DNA from: an uncultured archaeon | GTDB taxonomy: Archaea; Iainarchaeota; Iainarchaeia; Iainarchaeales; 1-14-0-10-31-34 | Direction: 5' to 3' | Length of the DNA: 64,000 nucleotides | Assembly: GCA_964608675.1 (NCBI GenBank) | Contig: CAZSOZ010000005.1 | Coordinates: 1 to 64,000 of the forward strand | Shown: in pieces, positions 10,734 through 49,592 of the stretch | How the letters are laid out: every line of letters begins with the position of its first letter | Position numbering within the stretch: position 1 is the first letter of the stretch | Position numbers and translations under genes: made by a program | Notes under the pieces: model-generated | The model's input: only the letters and a program-made list of their open reading frames with translations | Told to the model about the DNA's origin: nothing | Databases searched by the model: none

Positions 10734-10798
10734 ATAATTTCACCTAATATAAAATTAGTTCAACTAATTTATAAATGTTTCTTTTAATCCGCTCGGCG

Positions 10799-10853
10799 TG
10801 CAGTCCAGCTTTATGCTGGACGTTTTGGCAACTTGCCTTTTTTTAAAAGGCAG
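10799..10853. repeat. double-hairpin repeat module (GTCCAGC-TTTAT-GCTGGAC plus GCCTTTT..AAAAGGC)
   Basis: Degenerate copy at 43503-43559; first hairpin inverted at 49566-49588. Confidence 0.7.
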
Positions 10854-10897
10854 ATTCCCACCTCCCAGCCTTGCTCTACGGGTGCAATTCCCGCCGG
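10854..10897. repeat. 44-bp inter-cassette repeat (tRNA-Tyr 3' end plus T-arm-like hairpin)
   Basis: 39/44 identical to 11460-11503. Confidence 0.85.
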
Positions 10898-10901
10898 ATT
10901 T

Positions 10902-12604: not shown

Positions 12605-12674
12605 CTAATAACATATTAGTTCAATCTGAATAAAAAGATTTGTCTGGTTATCGGTCCTTTTTTTGGAGAAAAAG

Positions 12675-12845
12675 TCCCGCCTCCCGGATTTGCACCGGGG
12701 ACCTCTCGGTGTCCGCTTACCTGCTTCTGTGCGGGTGGAACGGCGCAGTACTTCGCTTTGCTCAGTACAGCTGTCACTCCTAACACCTTTTTCAGTGTTT
12801 GCAAAAAATCTACAGCCGAGCGCACTACTACTATGCAAAGGCGGG
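12675..12845 (-). tRNA. tRNA-Tyr(GTA) with 99-nt intron (12711-12809) at position 37/38
   Basis: CCCGCCT/AGGCGGG acceptor, CTCGG-CT-GTA-G|A-CCGAG anticodon arm, BHB (CTGT/GCGG, bulges AGA and ACA). Confidence 0.9.
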
Positions 12846-36660: not shown

Positions 36661-36730
36661 AAGTTAAATATTGTTTTAACTACTATTTATTTTTTTCCAA
36701 AGCCCCTGTTATCCAAAACTAATCATTTAG

Positions 36731-36998
36731 AGCCTCTAGGGGGATTTGAACCCCCGGCCTACTGATTACTCGGTTCCGCCCGAGTGTGACGGTGCACGCC
36801 GTAAAGGCGTGCTAGCACTGCTTTATGCAGTGCTTCGGCACTCACGCTCGAAAGCGTGACGGTGCAGGACATTCACTTTGTTCAGTCCAGCTGCCAAAGC
36901 ATGACAGCCCTGTCGAGCTGAAAGCGAAGACAGTGCTCCGTGTTAAACCGGCGGAACGGTTTTACAAGTCAGTCGCTCTGCCACTGAGCTATAGAGGC
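36731..36998 (-). tRNA. tRNA-Thr(TGT) with 196-nt intron (36767-36962)
   Basis: GCCTCTA/TAGAGGC acceptor, ACTGA-CT-TGT-A|A-TCAGT, CTTG/CGAG helix with TAA bulge, GGTTCAAATCC. Confidence 0.92.
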
Positions 36999-37044
36999 AA
37001 AAAAAACTCTGTTTTTAAAGCTTTTAAGCAATAAATATTTTTTA

Positions 37045-37698
37045 ATGGAATCAATTAAAAGTATTTGCTCTAAATGCACTGAATGCTGTAAAAAATACAA
37101 TATAACTCTGCTTCCAGAAGAAAGCAAAAGAATATCTCAATACATGAATTTAAATGAAAAAGAATTTATTGAAAACTATTGTGATTTACTGCTTCAATTT
37201 TTTCCTTCATTTAAATCAAATAATCCGTTTGTAGTTCATTACACAGAAATCCCAAAAAAATTATACAAAAAATTTCAAGAGCATTCTGAAAAAGATTATT
37301 TCTTTGTTCTCCCAAATATAAGTTTAAAAAAAACAAACAAATGCATTTTTCTTGAAAACGGTTTATGCACAGTACAAGAAGTAAAACCAGAGCAATGCAT
37401 TTTATTTCCTTTTATAATAATCAACGAAGAAACAAAAATAAAAGAAAAATATTTGTTCTGCAAATTATTAAAACAAGGAATTAAAGCAGATGAAAACGCA
37501 AAAGAAAAATCCTTAAACCATTACACAAAAGTAAAAAACTATTTTGAGTTAATAAAAGAAAAAGGCTTTCAGCAAGAATGGAAAGAACTTCCAAAAAAAG
37601 GAGCAATTTTTTTAGAAGAAAAGCAAATTCAAAAAATAACGCAAAAAGACTTCTTAAAACTCATAAACTTATTCAAAGTTTCCGACCAAAACCTTTAA
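37045..37698 (+). CDS. YkgJ/CxxCxxCC family protein
   Basis: CSKCTECC, CIFL..GLC.V...KPEQC.LFPF. Confidence 0.8.
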   Translation: MESIKSICSKCTECCKKYNITLLPEESKRISQYMNLNEKEFIENYCDLLLQFFPSFKSNNPFVVHYTEIPKKLYKKFQEHSEKDYFFVLPNISLKKTNKCIFLENGLCTVQEVKPEQCILFPFIIINEETKIKEKYLFCKLLKQGIKADENAKEKSLNHYTKVKNYFELIKEKGFQQEWKELPKKGAIFLEEKQIQKITQKDFLKLINLFKVSDQNL

Positions 37699-37706
37699 AT
37701 AAAGTT

Positions 37707-37722
37707 ATGAATATATATTCAT
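37707..37722. promoter_or_regulatory. operator ATGAATATATATTCAT
   Basis: Perfect 16-bp palindrome 5 nt after TTTAAATA. Confidence 0.62.
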
Positions 37723-37743
37723 TATATAATTTAAGGGAGGTAA

Positions 37744-38034
37744 TTGATTATGCCTTATTTTGATAGAACTGGTCCTGATGGAAGAGGTCCTTTAACTGGA
37801 AGAGGTTTTGGTTATTGTTCTGGAAGGCCTTTTAGAAGAGGTTATGCCAGAGGAAGAAATCGAAGTTTTGGAAGAGGTTTTGGCTTTAGAAGAGATTTCC
37901 CGGATTTTTGTGAAATGCCTTTTGAAAGACCCTTAACTAAAACTGAAGAAAAAAAAATTTTAGAAGAAGAACTAAAAGACTTAGATGAAGAAAAAAAAGC
38001 AATCCAGGAAAAATTAAAAGAATTAAAGGGTTAA
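37744..38034 (+). CDS. DUF5320 family protein
   Basis: MP.FDRTGP.GRGPLTGRGFGYC plus coiled-coil tail. Confidence 0.8.
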   Translation: MIMPYFDRTGPDGRGPLTGRGFGYCSGRPFRRGYARGRNRSFGRGFGFRRDFPDFCEMPFERPLTKTEEKKILEEELKDLDEEKKAIQEKLKELKG

Positions 38035-38035
38035 T

Positions 38036-38443
38036 ATGCCAAGACCAAGAAGATTCAGAAGGGTTTTTTCTGAACCCAATATAACTTACTTTAAGCCGGC
38101 TGGCATTAGAATGGTTGACTTAGAGGAAACAGTTATTTCTGTGGATGAATTTGAGGCTGTGAGACTGAAAGATTTTGAAGGATTAGAACAGTCAGATTGT
38201 GCTAAAAAAATGAATGTTTCTCAGCCTACCTTTCACAGATTAATTTTAAATGCAAGAAAAAAGCTGGCTGAAGCAATAGTTAAAGGAAAAGCAATTAAAA
38301 TTGAAGGCGGACATTTCAGGATTTCAGGCAACCCTAAAAAATGTGTTTGCAGTAAATGCGGTTATTCTTTGCCTAAAGAAAGAGGGGTTCCTTGCAATTC
38401 AGTTAATTGCCCTGAATGTAATGCTTTAATGGTAAGAGGATAA
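38036..38443 (+). CDS. DUF134 DNA-binding protein with C-terminal zinc ribbon
   Basis: MPRPRRFR, FKPAG, DEFEAVRL.D, MNVSQPTF.R. Confidence 0.88.
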   Translation: MPRPRRFRRVFSEPNITYFKPAGIRMVDLEETVISVDEFEAVRLKDFEGLEQSDCAKKMNVSQPTFHRLILNARKKLAEAIVKGKAIKIEGGHFRISGNPKKCVCSKCGYSLPKERGVPCNSVNCPECNALMVRG

Positions 38444-38444
38444 A

Positions 38445-38888
38445 ATGAATGAAAAAAACCAGCAAAATAAAAATGATTTGAAATGTGTTTTGTTGAGGAC
38501 CGGGAAAGGCTTGCTGAATAGAATTCCTTTTCTGTTTCCGACAATTTTATTGATTGCTTTGGTTAATTCTTTGATTCCAAAGAGCTTTTATTCAACTGTT
38601 TTTAAAGGAAACCTGTTTGTTGATTCTTTTATTGGAAGCATTGTTGGAAGCATTTCAGCAGGAGACCCTTCTTCAAGTTATGTGCTTGGAGGAGAGTTTT
38701 TGAATCAAGGAGTTAATTTGATTGTAGTTACTGCTTTTCTTGTTGCATGGGTTACAGTCGGAGTAATCCAGTTGCCTGCTGAAATTTCTTTTTTAGGAAA
38801 AAAATTTGCTTTAATCAGAAATCTTACTGCGTTTGTTTTTTCTATTTTGGTTGCACTTACAACAGTTTTTTTGTGGAGCGTGTTCTAA
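38445..38888 (+). CDS. predicted permease subunit (DUF318-like)
   Basis: GSISAG.P..SY.LG, WVTVG..QLPAE. Confidence 0.7.
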   Translation: MNEKNQQNKNDLKCVLLRTGKGLLNRIPFLFPTILLIALVNSLIPKSFYSTVFKGNLFVDSFIGSIVGSISAGDPSSSYVLGGEFLNQGVNLIVVTAFLVAWVTVGVIQLPAEISFLGKKFALIRNLTAFVFSILVALTTVFLWSVF

Positions 38889-38889
38889 A

Positions 38890-39405
38890 ATGAAATTAAA
38901 GAATTTTTTATTTCAATTTGGTTTTCTTGCTTTAATGGTTTTAATTTACATTTACTTGTTTTTTTTTGAAAAAAAACGGTTTTTTTCTTCAATTGATTTT
39001 TTCCTGAAAATTTTAGTTAATTTGATTCCTGTTTTTGCTTTGATTTTTGTTTTAATGTTTTTGATTAATTTTTTTGTTTCAAAAAAAACGGTTTCAAAGT
39101 ATGTTGTTTCTTCCGGAAAAAAAGGATGGTTGTTTGCGGTTGTTGCAGGAATTCTTTCAATGGGTCCGATTTATATGTGGTATCCTTTTTTGCAGGATTT
39201 AAAAGAAAAAGGATTTAATGAAGGCTTGATTTCAGTTTTTTTGTATAATCGTGCAATCAAAATCCCTTTTATTCCTTTAGCAGTATTTTATTTTGGCTTA
39301 AAGTTTGTTTTTATTTTGGCTTTTGTTATGATTGTTTTTTCGGTTATTCAAGGATTAACTGTAAATAAACTGATAAAAATAAAAACTTTTTCTGTAAATA
39401 ATTGA
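38890..39405 (+). CDS. predicted permease subunit (start likely ATG 38890)
   Basis: GILSMGPIYMWYP, FLYNRAIKIP. Confidence 0.7.
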   Translation: MKLKNFLFQFGFLALMVLIYIYLFFFEKKRFFSSIDFFLKILVNLIPVFALIFVLMFLINFFVSKKTVSKYVVSSGKKGWLFAVVAGILSMGPIYMWYPFLQDLKEKGFNEGLISVFLYNRAIKIPFIPLAVFYFGLKFVFILAFVMIVFSVIQGLTVNKLIKIKTFSVNN

Positions 39406-39410
39406 GGTGA

Positions 39411-40523
39411 ATGAAAGTGAAATTTAAGTTTTTTGTCTTGCTTTTTTGTTTTCTATTTTTGTTTTCTTTAGTTTCAGCTCAAGAAGACAAAAAAGTTGAA
39501 GTAAAATTTTTTTATAGTTCTTCTTGTCCTCATTGCGCTGAAGCAAACGAAAAATTAATTGAATTAGAATCAAAATATGCTTTTTTGGAAATTGACAGGC
39601 TTGTGATTTCAGAGAACACTGATTATTTAATGCAGCTTTATCAGGAATATGGTGTTCCTTCAGATAAATGGGGGCATGTTCCAATTCTTTTTGTTGGAGA
39701 AAAATATTATATTGGAGACATTCCAATAATTCAAAATATTGAATCAGATGTAATTGAATTGCATGAACAAATTCCAGTTGATTCTGAGCCTAATTTAAAC
39801 CCTGAACCTAAACTTAAACCTGAAACAAAAGTTTCTTTAATTCAGCTTTTAGGTTTGGCTTTGGTTGATGCAGTTAATCCGTGTGAGTTAGCTGTTTTAA
39901 TTATTTTGATGACTGCAATTCTTTCAAGGTTTCCAAATCGAAAAGATAAGGCATTAAAGGCTGGCTTGGCTTTTACTTCAGCAATTTTTTTAATGTATTT
40001 TTTGTTTGGTTTTTTGATTATTCTTGGATTCAAAACTTTAGTGGGTTTGGCTGACATTCAGTCTTTGTGGTTTTATAAATTGCTTGCAGGACTAGCAATA
40101 ATTCTTGGATTACTAAACATCAAGGATGCAGTTTGGTATGGCGGAGGCGGATTTATAATGGAAGTCCCTCAAAGATGGCGTCCAAAAATGAAAAGCATTA
40201 TTAAAGGAACAACTTCTACTGCAGGAGCTTTTGTTGCAGGAATTATTGTAAGTTTTTTTTTGACTCCTTGTACTGCAGGACCTTATTTTGTTTTTGGAGG
40301 AATTCTCTCCAACATGGCTTTTATTGAAACACTTCCTTATTTGTTTCTTTATATGCTTGTTTTTATTTCTCCGATGATTGCAATTACTTTGATTACATAT
40401 TTTGGTTTTATGGTAATAGGCGATGTTGCCGGCTGGAGGGAAAAAAACATTAAAACTTTACATTGGATTGCAGGGCTTTTACTTCTTGTTTTAGGTATTG
40501 CAATGCTGTTGGGCTGGATTTAA
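39411..40523 (+). CDS. thioredoxin-like domain fused to a CcdA/DsbD-like membrane domain
   Basis: CPHC; DAVNPC; TPCTAGPY. Confidence 0.8.
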   Translation: MKVKFKFFVLLFCFLFLFSLVSAQEDKKVEVKFFYSSSCPHCAEANEKLIELESKYAFLEIDRLVISENTDYLMQLYQEYGVPSDKWGHVPILFVGEKYYIGDIPIIQNIESDVIELHEQIPVDSEPNLNPEPKLKPETKVSLIQLLGLALVDAVNPCELAVLIILMTAILSRFPNRKDKALKAGLAFTSAIFLMYFLFGFLIILGFKTLVGLADIQSLWFYKLLAGLAIILGLLNIKDAVWYGGGGFIMEVPQRWRPKMKSIIKGTTSTAGAFVAGIIVSFFLTPCTAGPYFVFGGILSNMAFIETLPYLFLYMLVFISPMIAITLITYFGFMVIGDVAGWREKNIKTLHWIAGLLLLVLGIAMLLGWI

Positions 40524-40576
40524 TCATTAATTTAATAAAGATAATTAACTATTTTTTTTTGTGGAGGTTGAAATAA

Positions 40577-40861
40577 ATGTTATCAAAGATTCCGATTGAT
40601 TTAAATAAAGTGGAAGAAAACGATTTAGATAAAGAAATTTTGAGGGCTTCAATTATTGCTGAATTGGATGCAGTTAATTTGTATGAACAGATGGCTGCAT
40701 TAACTAAAAGCAGTAAATTGAAGAAAATTCTTTTGGATGTAGCCAGAGAAGAAAAAACACATGTAGGAGAATTTCAGGCACTGCTTTTGCAAATCGATGA
40801 AGAACAGGTAAAAGAATTAGAGGAAGGAAAAAAGGAAGTCGAAGAAGAATTATCTGAATAA
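40577..40861 (+). CDS. short ferritin/rubrerythrin-like protein
   Basis: AELDAVNLYEQ...EEKTHVGEF. Confidence 0.78.
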   Translation: MLSKIPIDLNKVEENDLDKEILRASIIAELDAVNLYEQMAALTKSSKLKKILLDVAREEKTHVGEFQALLLQIDEEQVKELEEGKKEVEEELSE

Positions 40862-40937
40862 TTTTCTTTTTTTTTCTTTTTTAATTTTTTTTATCATATA
40901 ATAACTTTTTTATTTTTGTTGCAGTTGTTTTTTATTC

Positions 40938-42086
40938 ATGCATACTTCTAAGATTATTTTGAATAAAACAAATTACAGGAAAAACATTGATTTCATTAAG
41001 AGACTGGTAGGAAAAAAAGTTTTGGTTTCTTCTGTTGTTAAAGCAAATGCTTACGGCCATGGAATAAAAGAATTTGTTCCTGTTGCAGAAGAAGCAGGAA
41101 TAAATCATTTTTCTGTTTTCAGCCAAAATGAAGCTTTTGAAGTAAAAAAATACTGCAAAAACAATCCTACAATAATGATTATGGGGGTTGTTTCGCTTAA
41201 ACATTTTGATTGGGTTGTAAAGAATGACATAGACTTTTATGTTTTTAATTATACTCGCCTTCTTTCAGCTTTAAAAATTGCCAAAAAATTAAATAAAAAA
41301 TTAAGGATTCATATTGAAGTTGAAACAGGATTAAATAGAACAGGGTTTGCTGAAACAGAACTGCAAGACCTTTTTAAAATCCTTAAAAAAAACAAAAAAT
41401 ATATTAAAATTAAAGGTTTGTGTACTCATTTTGCCGGAGCAGAAAATATTGCAAACTATTACAGAATAAAAAAACAAAGAAAAAGGTTTAAAGAGTATAT
41501 TTCTGTTTTTAAAAAAGAAGGAATTACTCCTGAATTAATTCATGCTGCTTCTTCTGCGGGCATGATTACTATGCCTGAAACAAGATTTAATTTGGTTAGA
41601 GTGGGAGTAATGCAGTATGGTTTTTGGCCCAGTGGAGAAACCAGAATGTTTTATTTTGCTAAGAAAAAAAGAAAGGAAAACCCTTTGCATCCAATTTTGT
41701 CATGGGAATCAGAAATAATGAGCATTAAAACAGTTAATGCAGGGGATTATATTGGTTATTCAAATAATTATCAGGCTTATGATGAAATGAAAATAGCTAC
41801 GGTTCCTGTTGGTTATTCTCAGGGTTACAGCAGAAGGTTAAGCAATAATTCTTGGGTAATAGTTAACGGAGAATTTGCAGAAGTTATAGGAATAGTTAAC
41901 ATGAATTTGTTTCAAATTGATGTAACTCATTTGCCTGAAATTAAAATTGGAGACAAAGTAATTTTGATTGGAGAAGACAGCAACAAAAAAATAAGTTTTG
42001 CTTCTTTTAGTGACAGAAAAAATTCTTTAAGTTATGATATTCTTACAAGAATTCCTGAAGATATTCCGAGAAAAGTAATACATTAA
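40938..42086 (+). CDS. alr: alanine racemase
   Basis: VVKANAYGHG PLP-lysine motif, VETGLNRTG, THFA, VRVG..YG, GYSQGY, IVNMN. Confidence 0.88.
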   Translation: MHTSKIILNKTNYRKNIDFIKRLVGKKVLVSSVVKANAYGHGIKEFVPVAEEAGINHFSVFSQNEAFEVKKYCKNNPTIMIMGVVSLKHFDWVVKNDIDFYVFNYTRLLSALKIAKKLNKKLRIHIEVETGLNRTGFAETELQDLFKILKKNKKYIKIKGLCTHFAGAENIANYYRIKKQRKRFKEYISVFKKEGITPELIHAASSAGMITMPETRFNLVRVGVMQYGFWPSGETRMFYFAKKKRKENPLHPILSWESEIMSIKTVNAGDYIGYSNNYQAYDEMKIATVPVGYSQGYSRRLSNNSWVIVNGEFAEVIGIVNMNLFQIDVTHLPEIKIGDKVILIGEDSNKKISFASFSDRKNSLSYDILTRIPEDIPRKVIH

Positions 42087-42091
42087 TTGCA

Positions 42092-42166
42092 TGCTCCGGC
42101 CGGGATTCGAACCCGGGTCAATGCCTTGAGAGGGCATTATGCTTAACCGGACTACACTACCGGAGC
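42092..42166 (-). tRNA. tRNA-Glu(CTC)
   Basis: GCTCCGG/CCGGAGC acceptor, ATGCC-CT-CTC-AA-GGCAT, GGTTCGAATCC. Confidence 0.93.
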
Positions 42167-42170
42167 AAAC

Positions 42171-42299
42171 GTTTCGCCGTTTGAGCACGATGCACGACAT
42201 AAAGTCGTGCTAGCACCGCTTTACGCTGTGCCTCGTTGCAACCAGCCGAAACTGGTTCAGGACATTTGTTTCACTCAGTCCAGCTGTCTCAAATGGTTG
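42171..42299. repeat. multi-hairpin element in the tRNA-Glu 5' leader, homologous to the tRNA-Thr intron
   Basis: Same four hairpins in the same order as 36794-36895, with compensatory changes. Confidence 0.8.
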
Positions 42300-42346: not shown

Positions 42347-43261
42347 ATGAGATTACCGGCAATGAGCTGCCTAAAAGAACTTATTCAAGAAAAAACAGTT
42401 TTTTCTATGAATTCTTATTTTGATATTAGTTTGTTGAATGATAAATCTGATTCAAAACACACTTCATTACACGCTGAAATAGTCAATCTTACTCAAGAAG
42501 ATATTGATTTGAAAAAGGCATTAAATTTAGGTTATTCTCTTTCTTCAGTTGAAGATTGGATAAAACAAAGACACAGTGTTCCAATAAATGTTTTGAACAA
42601 TATTGATTCTATTTCTCCTCAAGTAAAATTTTTAAATTATAGAGGATCAAAAATAAAAGTAAAACTTCCTGAATTAGATAATAATCTGTTTTACTTTGCA
42701 GGAGTTGTGTTTGGAGATGGTCATGTTAGCGGTGTTATTAGACCAAAAGGCTATCGTAGTTATCGAGTTAAAATAGAGAAAAGCAAATCTGATTTTTCAC
42801 AGTATTTTATCTCACAACTAATTGAAGAACTGTTTGGTTTTAAACCAAGAATTTATTTCTGGAAAAGAAAAAGTGAATTAGTTAATATTATTGTAAACTC
42901 TAAAGTTGTTTCAAGGATTTTGACAAATGTTTTTGGTTTTTCGTATGGAAAGAAATCAGATAAAGTAATTGATTTTGTTAAACAGTTTCCAGAAGAATTG
43001 CAATTGTATTTCATTACTGGCTTGTTGGATACTGACGGAGGAATTTCAGCAAGCTCTTTTTCTTTTTGTAATTCATCAAAAAAGACAGTTTTGTTTGTAA
43101 AAGATTTTATGGAAAAACAAAATCTTGCCACTAAATTTTATGAACAATCTAAAGAGAACTTTAAATGGTATCAAGTTAGAATTCCATTAAAAGATAAAAA
43201 TAAGTTTCTCAAAACTTTTCCTTTGAAAAATAAAAGAAAGTATGCCGGTGGAGGGATATGA
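42347..43261 (+). CDS. free-standing double-motif LAGLIDADG endonuclease-like protein
   Basis: YFAGVVFGDGHV and FITGLLDTDGGI motifs. Confidence 0.82.
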   Translation: MRLPAMSCLKELIQEKTVFSMNSYFDISLLNDKSDSKHTSLHAEIVNLTQEDIDLKKALNLGYSLSSVEDWIKQRHSVPINVLNNIDSISPQVKFLNYRGSKIKVKLPELDNNLFYFAGVVFGDGHVSGVIRPKGYRSYRVKIEKSKSDFSQYFISQLIEELFGFKPRIYFWKRKSELVNIIVNSKVVSRILTNVFGFSYGKKSDKVIDFVKQFPEELQLYFITGLLDTDGGISASSFSFCNSSKKTVLFVKDFMEKQNLATKFYEQSKENFKWYQVRIPLKDKNKFLKTFPLKNKRKYAGGGI

Positions 43262-43359
43262 GCCCTCGACCTTCAGATTATGAGTTTCGCCTCCAAAACA
43301 ATTCATAAATTAAAAAATCGCTTGGAACTGACGCTCTAACCAGGCTGAGCTACACCGGC
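43243..43359 (-). tRNA. elongator tRNA-Met(CAT) with 42-nt non-canonical intron (43286-43327) at position 30/31
   Basis: GCCGGTG/CACCGGC acceptor; TCAG|A-CT-CAT-AA-TCTGA; strict BHB GAG-CGTC-AG|T-TCCAA / TTGGA-GGCG-AA|A-CTC. Confidence 0.88.
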
Positions 43360-43559
43360 GTACGAAAAGCTCTTTTGTTAAAGCAATAAGAATTAGCAAG
43401 TGAAAGCATTTTAAACAATTAGTTTTAAGGTTGAGCTACACCGGCAAAAAAGCAGTAATATTTTCTTTAAGGAAAGCATTTAAAGGATTAACAATTCATT
43501 TTTGCAGTATGGCTTTACACAGTATGTTTTGGCAACGTGCCTTTTTTTTTAAAAGGCAG

Positions 43560-49010: not shown

Positions 49011-49184
49011 ATTAATTGAATGAATTTTAAGCTGGAAAAATTTTTTATTTGGATTGCATTCTGGAAAGTATTTAAATAATTAGCAGAATAATTGTCTGTT
49101 ATGAACTCGATCACTTTTCATGGCAATCAATAATATTTGAGTTATGTAGTTATTAAAAAGCCTTTGTCTGCGTTTTTTATTTAT

Positions 49185-49294
49185 GGCTCCATGGTGTAAT
49201 GGATTAGCATCACAGCTTGCGGTAAACTTTTAGAAAAAGTTTAATCAAAAGTTGCAATAAGCTGTTGGCCAGGGTTCAATTCCCTGTGGGGCCG
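49185..49294 (+). tRNA. tRNA-Arg(GCG) with 37-nt intron (49223-49259)
   Basis: ACAGC-TT-GCG-G|A-GCTGT; BHB TTGC/GCAA with GGT and TAA bulges. Confidence 0.88.
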
Positions 49295-49353
49295 TCCGAG
49301 CTGCTTCTCGGAAGGGAGCGCACCATTTCGCTTTGCTTATGGCACTGCAATAA
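49295..49353 (+). repeat. tRNA trailer element copy 1
   Basis: TCCGAGCTGCTYCTCGGAAGGGAGCG + hairpin + ACTGCAATAA; copy 2 at 49541-49592. Confidence 0.8.
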
Positions 49354-49456
49354 GCTAATTATTTTTAAATTCAATTGAATTAAGTTTTTTTTATGCAGTT
49401 CGGCTGAGTGCAAGCGAATGCCGTGCTCTGTGTTAAACCGGCGGAACGGTTTTTTT

Positions 49457-49540
49457 GCAGGAGTAGCGAAGCGGTCAAACGTGCTGGCTTCAGGGGCCAG
49501 TGGCTTAGTGCCTTCGGGGGTTCGAATCCTCCCTCCTGCA
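49457..49540 (+). tRNA. tRNA-Leu(CAG)
   Basis: GCAGGAG/CTCCTGC acceptor, CTGGC-TT-CAG-GG-GCCAG, long variable arm. Confidence 0.93.
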
Positions 49541-49592
49541 TCCGAGCTGCTCCTCGGAAGGGAGCGTCCGGCATAAAGCCGGACTGCAATAA
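49541..49592 (+). repeat. tRNA trailer element copy 2
   Basis: First 26 bp are 25/26 identical to 49295-49320. Confidence 0.8.

Follow-up and report, generated by a model that had tools for sequence, protein, structure and literature searches.

What are the hairpins that fill the long intron of one tRNA gene and the 5' leader of another in an uncultured archaeon of the Iainarchaeales, and how did they come to lie there? The question is raised by a 64,000-nt stretch of DNA (assembly GCA_964608675.1, contig CAZSOZ010000005.1, positions 1 to 64,000; hereafter the window), in which the intron of tRNA-Thr(UGU) and the leader of tRNA-Glu(CUC) contain the same four hairpins, numbered 1 to 4 along the plus strand, in the same order. 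A preliminary description of the window had reported this arrangement, and reading the letters again confirmed it. We believe it probable, if well short of certain, that the hairpins represent a family of mobile DNA elements, short, structured and non-autonomous, tolerated where processing removes them. The family, its fold, its placement, its mirror-symmetric orientation, the Watson-Crick symmetry of its stems, filled and empty sites, a 27-bp duplication and copies in frame within a protein gene were all observed directly.

The window is contig C5 of the source genome (G000), a metagenome-assembled genome of 1.21 Mb in 53 contigs that is 94% complete; all of the comparisons below, including those with the five other genomes of its genus (G001-G005), rest on metagenome assemblies. 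The large contigs of G000 have a G+C content of ca. 30%, and its archaeal signs include an archaeal RNase P RNA (101 bits), tRNA introns and a 16S-tRNA-Ala-23S operon. Contigs C10 and C16-C53 are short, with 40-68% G+C, and are probably contamination of the bin; two reverse-transcriptase open reading frames (ORFs) are on C28 and C30, and a "tRNA" call on C39, with an intron of 478 nt, is false. The tRNA genes were called with aragorn, by default and then with introns allowed, and with Rfam.

When the tRNA genes of G000 were listed together with their flanks, many 5' leaders were found to have in common a GC-rich sequence of ca. 60 nt that runs up to position -1. The core element is ca. 65 nt long and consists of a hairpin (hairpin A), a conserved linker (GUGCACGCAUGUC) and an H-type pseudoknot that ends at tRNA -1. 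Hairpin A has a stem of 4-5 bp, a tandem G-A internal loop (5' (U)GA / 3' GAA(U)), a covarying mini-stem of 2 bp and a loop of 3-4 nt. The 3' hairpin is the pseudoknot helix S2 (6 bp, AACUG/CAGUU type, loop RGCGUGA), and three bases of its loop pair with three bases of the linker to form helix S1. Accessory hairpins (with RUAAA/UUUAY or UUUCGR loops) and an AT-rich hairpin family nest in or beside this core. The modular, covarying family of the preliminary description therefore stands, with copies recovered by a model and covariation in their stems, but its unit is hairpin A, linker and pseudoknot, and hairpins 1-3 are accessory and nested. In some copies from relatives, hairpin A is swapped for a plain CUGC-UGAA-GCAG tetraloop hairpin. 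The AT-rich modules are also a family of their own in G000: a hairpin (AACCUUUUU-loop-AAAAGGUU) is followed by (U/A)AUCAAAAA and then by another hairpin. They fill most long introns, several trailers and the site 5' of tRNAs without the GC element (examples are 49184-49297, in the tRNA-Arg(GCG) intron, C1:152278-152433 and the C2:36448 trailer).

Copies were first sought with a strict regular expression for hairpin A, which gave nine matches in all (three being AT-rich chance matches); it was superseded by nhmmer and then by a covariance model, R1, built from hairpin A and the 3' hairpin alone, with S1 left out. Two overlapping folds of the 3' part of the element each covary, and joined they form the H-type pseudoknot; a CACGC/GCGUG alternative fold of the 3' hairpin was rejected as a competitor, being the pseudoknot partner. 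Among 12 G000 copies, 93% of the cells were paired and 10/14 pairs had changed on both sides (slid controls, 30-50% paired), with S1 paired at 100% in 12/12. The same picture was obtained from 56 copies of 12 other genomes, which are the best R1 matches listed (45 loci) and no random sample: 95.4% paired, 14/14 pairs changed on both sides and slid controls at 28-55%. In these 56 copies S1, although outside the model, was paired at 94% with all three pairs changed on both sides, one of them being GC in 14 copies, UA in 13, CG in 12 and AU in 9. The 3' part is an H-type pseudoknot backed by covariation. Folding energy is less telling: it was low for the Thr block (z = -4.5, with 0/200 shuffles as stable) and the Glu leader (z = -2.3, 5/200) and unremarkable for the canonical tRNA-Leu(CAG) leader (z = -0.4, 62/200), so that the case rests on covariation and on the E-values of the covariance model (down to 1e-18).

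No already described Rfam family matches. At the gathering threshold the whole window gave tRNA matches alone, and in the E-value mode of Rfam 15 nothing but tRNA was found on four leader loci (E <= 1) or on the Thr locus (E <= 5). Likewise, a search through the main texts of papers found no description of the element. Box C/D small RNAs (sRNAs) have terminal C (RUGAUGA) and D (CUGA) boxes and guides of 10-12 nt, and H/ACA RNAs have a pocket and an ACA; the only C/D-like letters in the element are an internal CUGA...GYGAA. Readings of hairpin A as C/D, H/ACA, hammerhead or another ribozyme were rejected by inspection, the boxes being unconserved or out of register. A pairing of leader and trailer into one processing stem was also rejected, as the leader and trailer stems of a given tRNA differ.

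The compact covarying structure with its tandem G-A motif might suggest independent small RNAs, leaders and introns being freed as stable, possibly circular, L7Ae-bound trans-acting RNAs (e.g., guides) with tRNA genes as their expression platform and with ends defined by tRNA processing. There are precedents for such tRNA-linked sRNAs in the C/D RNA of the tRNA-Trp intron and in Nanoarchaeum. We nevertheless find this very improbable for the present family, which has no C/D or H/ACA box arrangement and no Rfam match even at E <= 1 to 5. The linker, the candidate guide stretch, is consumed by the pseudoknot; antisense copies would yield a different RNA; the stems are strictly Watson-Crick; and one copy is part of a coding region, in frame.

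Where the copies lie is more informative. At E < 0.01, R1 found 25 copies in G000, of which 11 are in 5' leaders, 4 in 3' trailers, 4 in introns (Thr twice, Arg-CCU and Tyr), 1 upstream of the 23S gene and 5 elsewhere. In or beside tRNA genes are 19 of the 25, compared with 1.2% of the main contigs that is made up of tRNA genes and their 100-nt flanks (binomial P = 8e-32). The enrichment near tRNAs is clear, then, and the suggestion that the hairpins hide in removed tRNA segments holds for these 19, but copies are also found beside the 23S stem, between genes and in a leader peptide, where the reading frame is kept. About 14 tRNAs of G000 have introns of 70-196 nt, and seven full-length leaders end at tRNA -1. 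The copy upstream of 23S ends 3 nt 5' of the 5' strand of the processing stem, the 3' strand of which is abutted by an AT-rich module. Of the 56 copies from relatives, 20 are placed in sense orientation directly at a tRNA 5' end (gap <=3 nt) and 4 lie 24-90 nt upstream of a tRNA called by aragorn; 7 abut a 3' end in antisense (gap 0), 1 is at 44 nt from a 3' end and 1 is antisense inside an intron; the other 23 have no adjacent aragorn tRNA. The orientation rule is mirror-symmetric, with the pseudoknot end toward the tRNA, so that the element is sense at the 5' end and inverted at the 3' end and in introns; in G000 this applies to 4/4 trailer copies and 2/2 full intron copies. Spacers of tandem tRNAs hold an inverted pair, a trailer copy and then a leader copy. 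Perfect 7-bp hairpins with 5-nt loops and at least 3 G/C in the stem number 50 in the main contigs; RTAAA or TTTAY loops occur in 6, and 5 of these 6 are inside or within 25 nt of a tRNA gene.

Two side observations concern these flanks. The 3' trailers of tRNA-Ser(GGA) (C2:7779-7890) and tRNA-Ser(GCU) (C6:13002-13113) are identical over at least 110 nt, while their leaders are different, as if trailer modules had recently undergone gene conversion or been transferred together. The tRNA-Pyl(cta) that aragorn reports at C2:13940-14146, with a TTTAT hairpin in its 129-nt intron, is probably a different tRNA whose intron was misplaced in the call.

Such precise placement raises the alternative of a host-functional, cis-acting RNA module of pre-tRNA and pre-rRNA that would aid RNase P, RNase Z or the splicing endonuclease, be it through a stable helix stacked at the cleavage site, through L7Ae bound by the G-A motif or through insulation from AU-rich flanks, the other copies being accidental duplicates. 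It would account for the 20 of 56 relatives' copies and the seven full-length G000 leaders that end at -1, and for the copy next to the processing stem of 23S. The leaders of orthologous tRNAs have been kept, with compensatory change, the sequence is conserved over many families, and tRNAs without the GC element often have an AT-rich hairpin at the same place; moreover, RNase P RNA is present in G000, so that tRNA leaders are presumably cleaved. We consider this a serious rival, unlikely as an explanation of the whole family yet compatible with that of mobile DNA. Against it, the element occurs in both orientations, with the loop motifs kept on the element strand rather than on the transcript; hairpin A may be exchanged for a plain tetraloop hairpin; some copies lie between genes, and one is found, in frame, within the leader peptide of a protein; and a given tRNA may have the element in one genome and lack it in another, ca. 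70% of the genomes searched being element-free.

The composition of the stems bears on the same question. In 13 pairs of the 56 copies (ca. 700 pairs) we counted 7 G-U and 7 A-C, compared with 34 G-U and 2 A-C in the acceptor and T stems of 45 G000 tRNAs (540 pairs; Fisher P = 9e-4). A covariance model should prefer G-U over A-C, which makes the equality a conservative result. The G-A loop motif also stays on the element strand even in trailers, whose transcript would hold its complement. Near-pure Watson-Crick stems point to selection on both DNA strands, or on single-stranded DNA of either polarity, and an RNA acting in one orientation fits less well with the equal G-U and A-C counts and the strand of the G-A motif.

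To examine mobility, we compared three intergenic G000 copies with the five other genomes of the genus. At C4:30682-30748, a 63-nt element is present in G000 only, between perfect 27-bp direct repeats. The repeat spans the last codons and the stop of an ORF; G001, G002, G004 and G005 have one copy of it followed by AT-rich spacer, and R1 detected no element at the orthologous position in these four. G003 has at this site a 1-kb insert with a 304-aa ORF, which we take to be Fic-like from its motif, with no recognised transposase. At C3:29816, between two ORFs, G005 is empty, the stop being directly followed by the ATG; G000 and G003 have the GC element (with two tandem pseudoknots in G003), and G001, G002 and G004 have AT-rich modules, in G001 with an imperfect duplication of ca. 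28 nt of the ORF start around the insert. At C6:22608 the element is present in G000, G001 and G005, whereas G002, G003 and G004 have an empty site. Target duplications were looked for at C6:22608 and at C3:29816 of G000, and none was seen. The mobility of the element is thus directly supported by filled and empty orthologous sites within one genus. Close to the last site, C6:22745-22880 (minus strand) is a block of ca. 135 nt that recurs with 79-91% identity in each of the five other genomes, where its distance from the adjacent gene varies; it has no Rfam match and may be an RNA gene of no recognised kind, or the end of a gene.

Another copy, at C1:187656, lies in frame inside an ORF whose protein has a basic leader, the motif RGQ|(I/V)(T/S)AEF and a hydrophobic stretch. 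The leader peptide before this motif is 4 aa long in G003, 28 in G004, 30 in G000, 47 in G005 and 96 in G002; it is open in all five genomes compared, and the added length consists of element modules (hairpin A, UUUCGG hairpin, RUAAA/UUUAY hairpins and pseudoknot-like ends). We take RGQ|ITAEF and the hydrophobic stretch to be a prepilin-like signal (G, E at +5, hydrophobic helix). The G003 protein gave a Pfam TadE match below cut-off (E = 0.054) and no NCBIfam match.

Introns also come and go within the genus. The tRNA-Ser(GCU) gene is intronless in G000 and has introns of AT-rich modules in G003 (79 nt) and G005 (74 nt), and a 138-nt intron of tRNA-Leu(CAG) is found in G005 only. Modules nested within one another are seen as well. 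As a separate observation, a second copy of the first 14-17 nt of tRNA-Met lies 86 nt upstream of the gene (window 43429-43445, 43243-43359), and one of the first 14 nt of tRNA-Asp lies 64 nt upstream (C14:~723-738, 787-970); each copy starts exactly at +1, and insertion or integration may have left them as footprints.

With the unit defined, the two loci that raised the question can be read (Table 1). The Thr gene was called neither by default aragorn nor by Rfam, and aragorn with introns allowed labels it Tyr(gta); in-silico removal of the intron restores a canonical tRNA, a 73-nt tRNA-Thr(tgt) by aragorn. The minimum free energy fold of the intron has a 4-bp central helix (CUUG/CGAG) with a 3-nt bulge on the 3' side and a 7-nt bulge on the 5' side, a predicted, relaxed form of the archaeal bulge-helix-bulge, the norm for which is two 3-nt bulges with a 4-bp helix between. 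A sense hairpin A stands head-to-head with an antisense full element and is followed by hairpins 3, 2 and 1, the same layout as the inverted pair in the spacers of tandem tRNAs. Within the full element a 31-nt stretch has 97% identity to the tRNA-Leu(CAG) leader, in inverted orientation, and on the plus strand hairpin 4 is followed by AGCTG up to 36893. The paired copies of GTGACGGTGC look like a target duplication around the three-hairpin block. DNA contigs from three runs of one study showed no indel inside the source organism at this stretch. In a low-depth contig, X3 (depth 2.4, side 34), the Thr exons are joined by 26 different letters replacing the intron, probably a shorter intron from another organism and a weak hint.

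Both tRNA genes are on the minus strand; the hairpin block of tRNA-Glu is therefore a true 5' leader. Hairpins 1 and 2 are a single hairpin type in opposite orientations (loop RTAAA vs TTTAY). The compensatory changes claimed between the two loci are upheld by the strong covariation of the family, but in the Glu copy one mismatch of hairpin 2 is left uncompensated (C-T on the plus strand, A-G in the RNA). In the Glu leader of G000, hairpins 3, 2 and 1 are inserted between hairpin A and the linker with the pseudoknot; the same tRNA in G001 and G005 has a plain leader of hairpin A and pseudoknot, from which the four-hairpin block is seen to be a composite. Further modules are nested inside the hairpin A loop of the G005 Glu leader. 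The other sites named at the outset were also recovered: module 4 in the Tyr intron, at 12748-12768, the TTTAT hairpin and the inverted ATAAA hairpin. The unannotated island around the TTTAT hairpin has a T-arm-like 3' end (GGGTGCAATTCCC then GCCGGA) and an AT-rich hairpin, with no aragorn or Rfam call, and may be an odd or intron-bearing tRNA.

Table 1. Coordinates of the hairpin elements and associated features in the window
Feature	Position	Strand	Evidence or remark
tRNA-Thr(UGU) exon 1, 36 nt	36963-36998	-	In-silico splice
tRNA-Thr(UGU) intron, 196 nt, at the canonical 37/38 position; wholly element modules	36767-36962	-	In-silico splice
tRNA-Thr(UGU) exon 2, 37 nt	36730-36766	-	In-silico splice
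Full element (hairpin A, linker, pseudoknot), antisense to tRNA-Thr; pseudoknot end abuts exon 1	36895-36962	+	R1 61.3 bits, E = 2.3e-14
Hairpin A module (module 4 of the preliminary description, GGAC-loop-GTCC at 36867-36888), sense to tRNA	36857-36903	-	R1 35.5 bits
Hairpin 3, 6-bp stem, RNA loop UUUCGA	36842-36859	-	Letters, fold
Hairpin 2, 7 bp, RNA loop AUAAA	36815-36833	-	Letters, fold
Hairpin 1, 7 bp, RNA loop UUUAC (plus strand GCACGCC-GTAAA-GGCGTGC)	36794-36812	-	Letters, fold
10-nt direct repeat GTGACGGTGC, bracketing the three-hairpin block	36786-36795 and 36856-36865	.	Read from letters
tRNA-Glu(CUC)	42091-42167	-	aragorn; Rfam tRNA 65.7 bits
tRNA-Glu(CUC) 5' leader	42168-42296	-	R1 match 42225-42296, 34.3 bits
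Glu leader, first in RNA order: hairpin A	42260-42281	-	Plus strand then AGCTG to 42286
Glu leader, second: hairpin 3	42240-42257	-	Letters
Glu leader, third: GUAAA hairpin with one mismatch	42213-42231	-	Letters
Glu leader, fourth: UUUAU hairpin	42192-42210	-	Letters
Glu leader, last: linker and pseudoknot stem, ending at tRNA -1	42167-42191	-	Letters
Free-standing LAGLIDADG ORF, 304 aa, motifs LFYFAGVVFGDGHV and YFITGLLDTDGGI	42347-43261	+	Between tRNA-Met(CAU) and Glu leader
Canonical element, 5' leader of tRNA-Leu(CAG) (gene 49456-49543)	49386-49452	+	R1 67.5 bits, E = 4e-16; alignment A1
Degenerate element, mirror orientation, 3' trailer of tRNA-Arg(GCG) (gene 49184-49297)	49304-49357	-	R1 21.1 bits, E = 0.0046
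ATAAA-loop 7-bp hairpin, 3' trailer of tRNA-Leu(CAG)	49566-49584	+	Hairpin scan
Hairpin A module in the 99-nt intron of tRNA-Tyr(GUA) (gene 12674-12845)	12719-12783	-	R1 32.1 bits
TTTAT-loop 7-bp hairpin in the unannotated GC-rich island 10787-10899	10803-10821	+	Hairpin scan

The co-occurring nuclease or transposase that had been anticipated was sought among the Y1, TnpB, Cas1, RVT_1, GIY-YIG and LAGLIDADG families, and no mobiliser was identified among them. Y1_Tnp (PF01797), TnpB (PF07282) and Cas1 had no matches in G000, and RVT_1 was found there only on two short contigs of 49-58% GC, probably contamination. Y1_Tnp occurs in 1/6 genus genomes, in 5/14 genomes with at least 5 elements and in 6/31 element-free genomes, with no correlation. 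These counts go against the REP/MITE-like nature (repetitive extragenic palindrome, miniature inverted-repeat transposable element) proposed at first, as do the element ends: in the alignments of element copies, A1 and A2, they start with (A/C)AGC and finish with CAGTT(G), with neither terminal inverted repeats nor a GTAG/CGTC tag. An origin from REP/BIME or IS200/IS605 elements (PATE, omega-RNA-like), moved by a Y1 enzyme (RAYT/TnpA) or kept by TnpB, could draw on the short structured repeats in both orientations, often as inverted pairs, and on a structured 5' part followed by flank, superficially like scaffold and guide. Already disfavoured by the enzyme counts and the missing tag, it is to our mind scarcely credible.

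One lead to a mobiliser is the free-standing LAGLIDADG ORF of Table 1. Its last 19 nt overlap the tRNA-Met 3' end on the opposite strand, and in G001 and G005 tRNA-Met and tRNA-Glu are adjacent, with just an inverted element pair between them. By an informal comparison of coordinates, at least 8 free-standing LAGLIDADG ORFs of less than 400 aa in the genus are within 1 kb of a listed R1 match. All this would be expected if the hairpins were footprints or non-coding scaffolds of homing cassettes, flanking or outlasting the ORF and spread by co-conversion during break repair, with free-standing LAGLIDADG genes homing into tRNA flanks and introns like mobile archaeal rRNA introns. We judge this improbable. 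LAGLIDADG_3 is found in 52/61 genomes regardless of the presence of the element and so does not discriminate: G015, G039, G052 and G058 have 12-14 matches and zero elements, and G005 has 2 matches and 27 elements. Most of the matches are in long, intein-looking frames, a 27-bp target duplication is not a product of homing, and the 65-nt elements are far more numerous than the LAGLIDADG ORFs. GIY-YIG was found in 0/6 genus genomes.

Beyond the genus, in a clade of tiny AT-rich archaea, R1 at E <= 0.001 had matches in 30/61 related genomes, including 5/5 of the other genomes of the genus (24-43 matches each) and 8/8 of the family. A wider draw at E <= 1e-5 gave 35/121 genomes with a patchy distribution, from 14/20 in f10 and 3/4 in f24 to 0/13 in f2, 0/11 in f27 and 0/15 in f30.

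We return to the explanation by short mobile DNA elements, the most economical one, in which the fold would be what is recognised. New copies arise at the DNA level, and copies persist in segments that are later discarded, i.e., in 5' leaders, 3' trailers, 37/38 introns, the flank of the 23S stem and the prepilin-like leader peptide. Removal there would be by RNase P, RNase Z, the splicing endonuclease and prepilin peptidase, and insertions would then be nearly neutral. An enzyme of the host or of the element may recognise the fold on either strand, in single-stranded or cruciform DNA, and would then attach the pseudoknot end at the foot of such stems as are stable.

Several points weigh against this explanation. 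The search of candidate families gave no mobilising enzyme. A clean target duplication (27 bp) is present at only 1/3 of the polymorphic intergenic sites, and this insertion, at C4, is known from the assembly alone. Orthologous leaders are kept across genus and family with compensatory change, e.g., that of tRNA-Ser(GCU) in G000, G003 and G005, and also those of Ile(UAU), Glu(CUC) and Leu(CAG), which resembles purifying selection. Loops and linker are conserved throughout the clade despite a 30%-GC background, which a host function fits equally with continuing homing. Random insertion followed by tolerance gives no reason for ends exactly at tRNA -1 or at the 3' end. The G-U and A-C counts are small and come from copies picked by a covariance model, and the prepilin identity of the in-frame ORF depends on a short motif with a hydrophobic stretch and a sub-threshold TadE match.

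A bolder version, which we offer as possible rather than probable, is that the elements are the vehicle of archaeal tRNA intron gain. A structure-specific activity of the host, with no transposase, would join the fold of either strand to the feet of stems and to the anticodon loop; surviving where it is processed out of RNA or protein, a single parasite would have colonised leaders, trailers, introns and signal peptides and given rise to long bulge-helix-bulge introns. The family may in this way show how archaeal tRNA introns arise, and the same element, filled or empty between species of one genus, makes the gain of intron material directly testable. It is also a natural experiment on tolerated extra sequence, with segments cut by RNase P, RNase Z, the splicing endonuclease and signal peptidase. 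If instead the host function were true, the leaders would represent a new conserved pre-tRNA structure. In either case, this is a widespread, unannotated hairpin and pseudoknot motif that has no Rfam entry, and a warning for annotation, as default tRNA callers miss or misname such genes.

How does the element compare with known systems? The PATE and TnpB omega-RNAs of IS200/IS605 go with TnpB or TnpA in the genome and have scaffolds of ca. 100-250 nt, whereas the archaeal element is ca. 65 nt long and TnpA and TnpB were not found in G000. From MITEs it differs in that the ends in A1 and A2 are not mutual inverted repeats and no parent element was found. MITEs also have target duplications of fixed length; around the elements there is a perfect duplication of 27 bp (C4) and an imperfect one of ca. 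28 nt (G001, C3), with none at C6:22608 or at C3:29816 in G000, and tRNA-Met and tRNA-Asp have the 5' duplications of 14-17 nt described above. Rickettsia palindromic elements are small palindromic mobile elements that are tolerated in frame in protein genes and in RNA genes. They are unrelated in sequence and host, and here in-frame insertion was seen in a single gene family, within a stretch whose cleavage is predicted. Hairpin A shares with the K-loop, or box C'/D', bound by L7Ae a 5' CUGA, a 3' G(U/C)GAA and the tandem G-A/A-G; unlike a K-loop, it has no 3-nt bulge, terminal C/D boxes or guide spacing, and the bases beside the G-A form a covarying 2-bp stem. The bacterial REP/BIME (REPINs) are likewise short, multi-copy, structured palindromic non-coding repeats in both orientations and in inverted pairs; those with a RAYT are reported to end, on one side of the palindrome, in a conserved tetranucleotide, GTAG or CGTC (PMC3733652). 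The archaeal element differs in its pseudoknot and second hairpin and in its association with introns and the boundaries of tRNAs instead of mRNA 3' ends, and it has neither the tag nor co-occurring Y1. Other systems for comparison are the GC clusters of yeast mitochondria and the double-hairpin elements of fungal mitochondria (PMC4478555). Such elements are GC-rich, mobile hairpin mini-elements of a very AT-rich genome, with no transposase of their own, polymorphic in presence and often beside tRNAs. They belong to another domain of life, and they are not known to have a covarying pseudoknot or a mirror-symmetric abutment on tRNA ends. For tRNA introns, transposition in Thermoproteales is a known model of gain. 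A model of mobile-element integration has been put forward (Sugahara et al., 2012; PMC3293823), and a 2026 census of Asgard tRNA genes (10.64898/2026.10.13.758758) records repeated gains but no general way in which introns arrive. Common to these models and our data are introns at 37/38, with a predicted, relaxed bulge-helix-bulge in the Thr intron here, that come and go between close relatives, and tRNA 5' fragments duplicated upstream, whereas here the inserted material is an identifiable repeated family that also occurs outside introns. In its manner of action the element resembles mitochondrial GC clusters, REP/BIME and the palindromic elements of Rickettsia; we take it to be a miniature structured mobile element that is unusual in its pseudoknot, its mirror-symmetric docking at tRNAs, its building of introns and its in-frame copy in a leader peptide.

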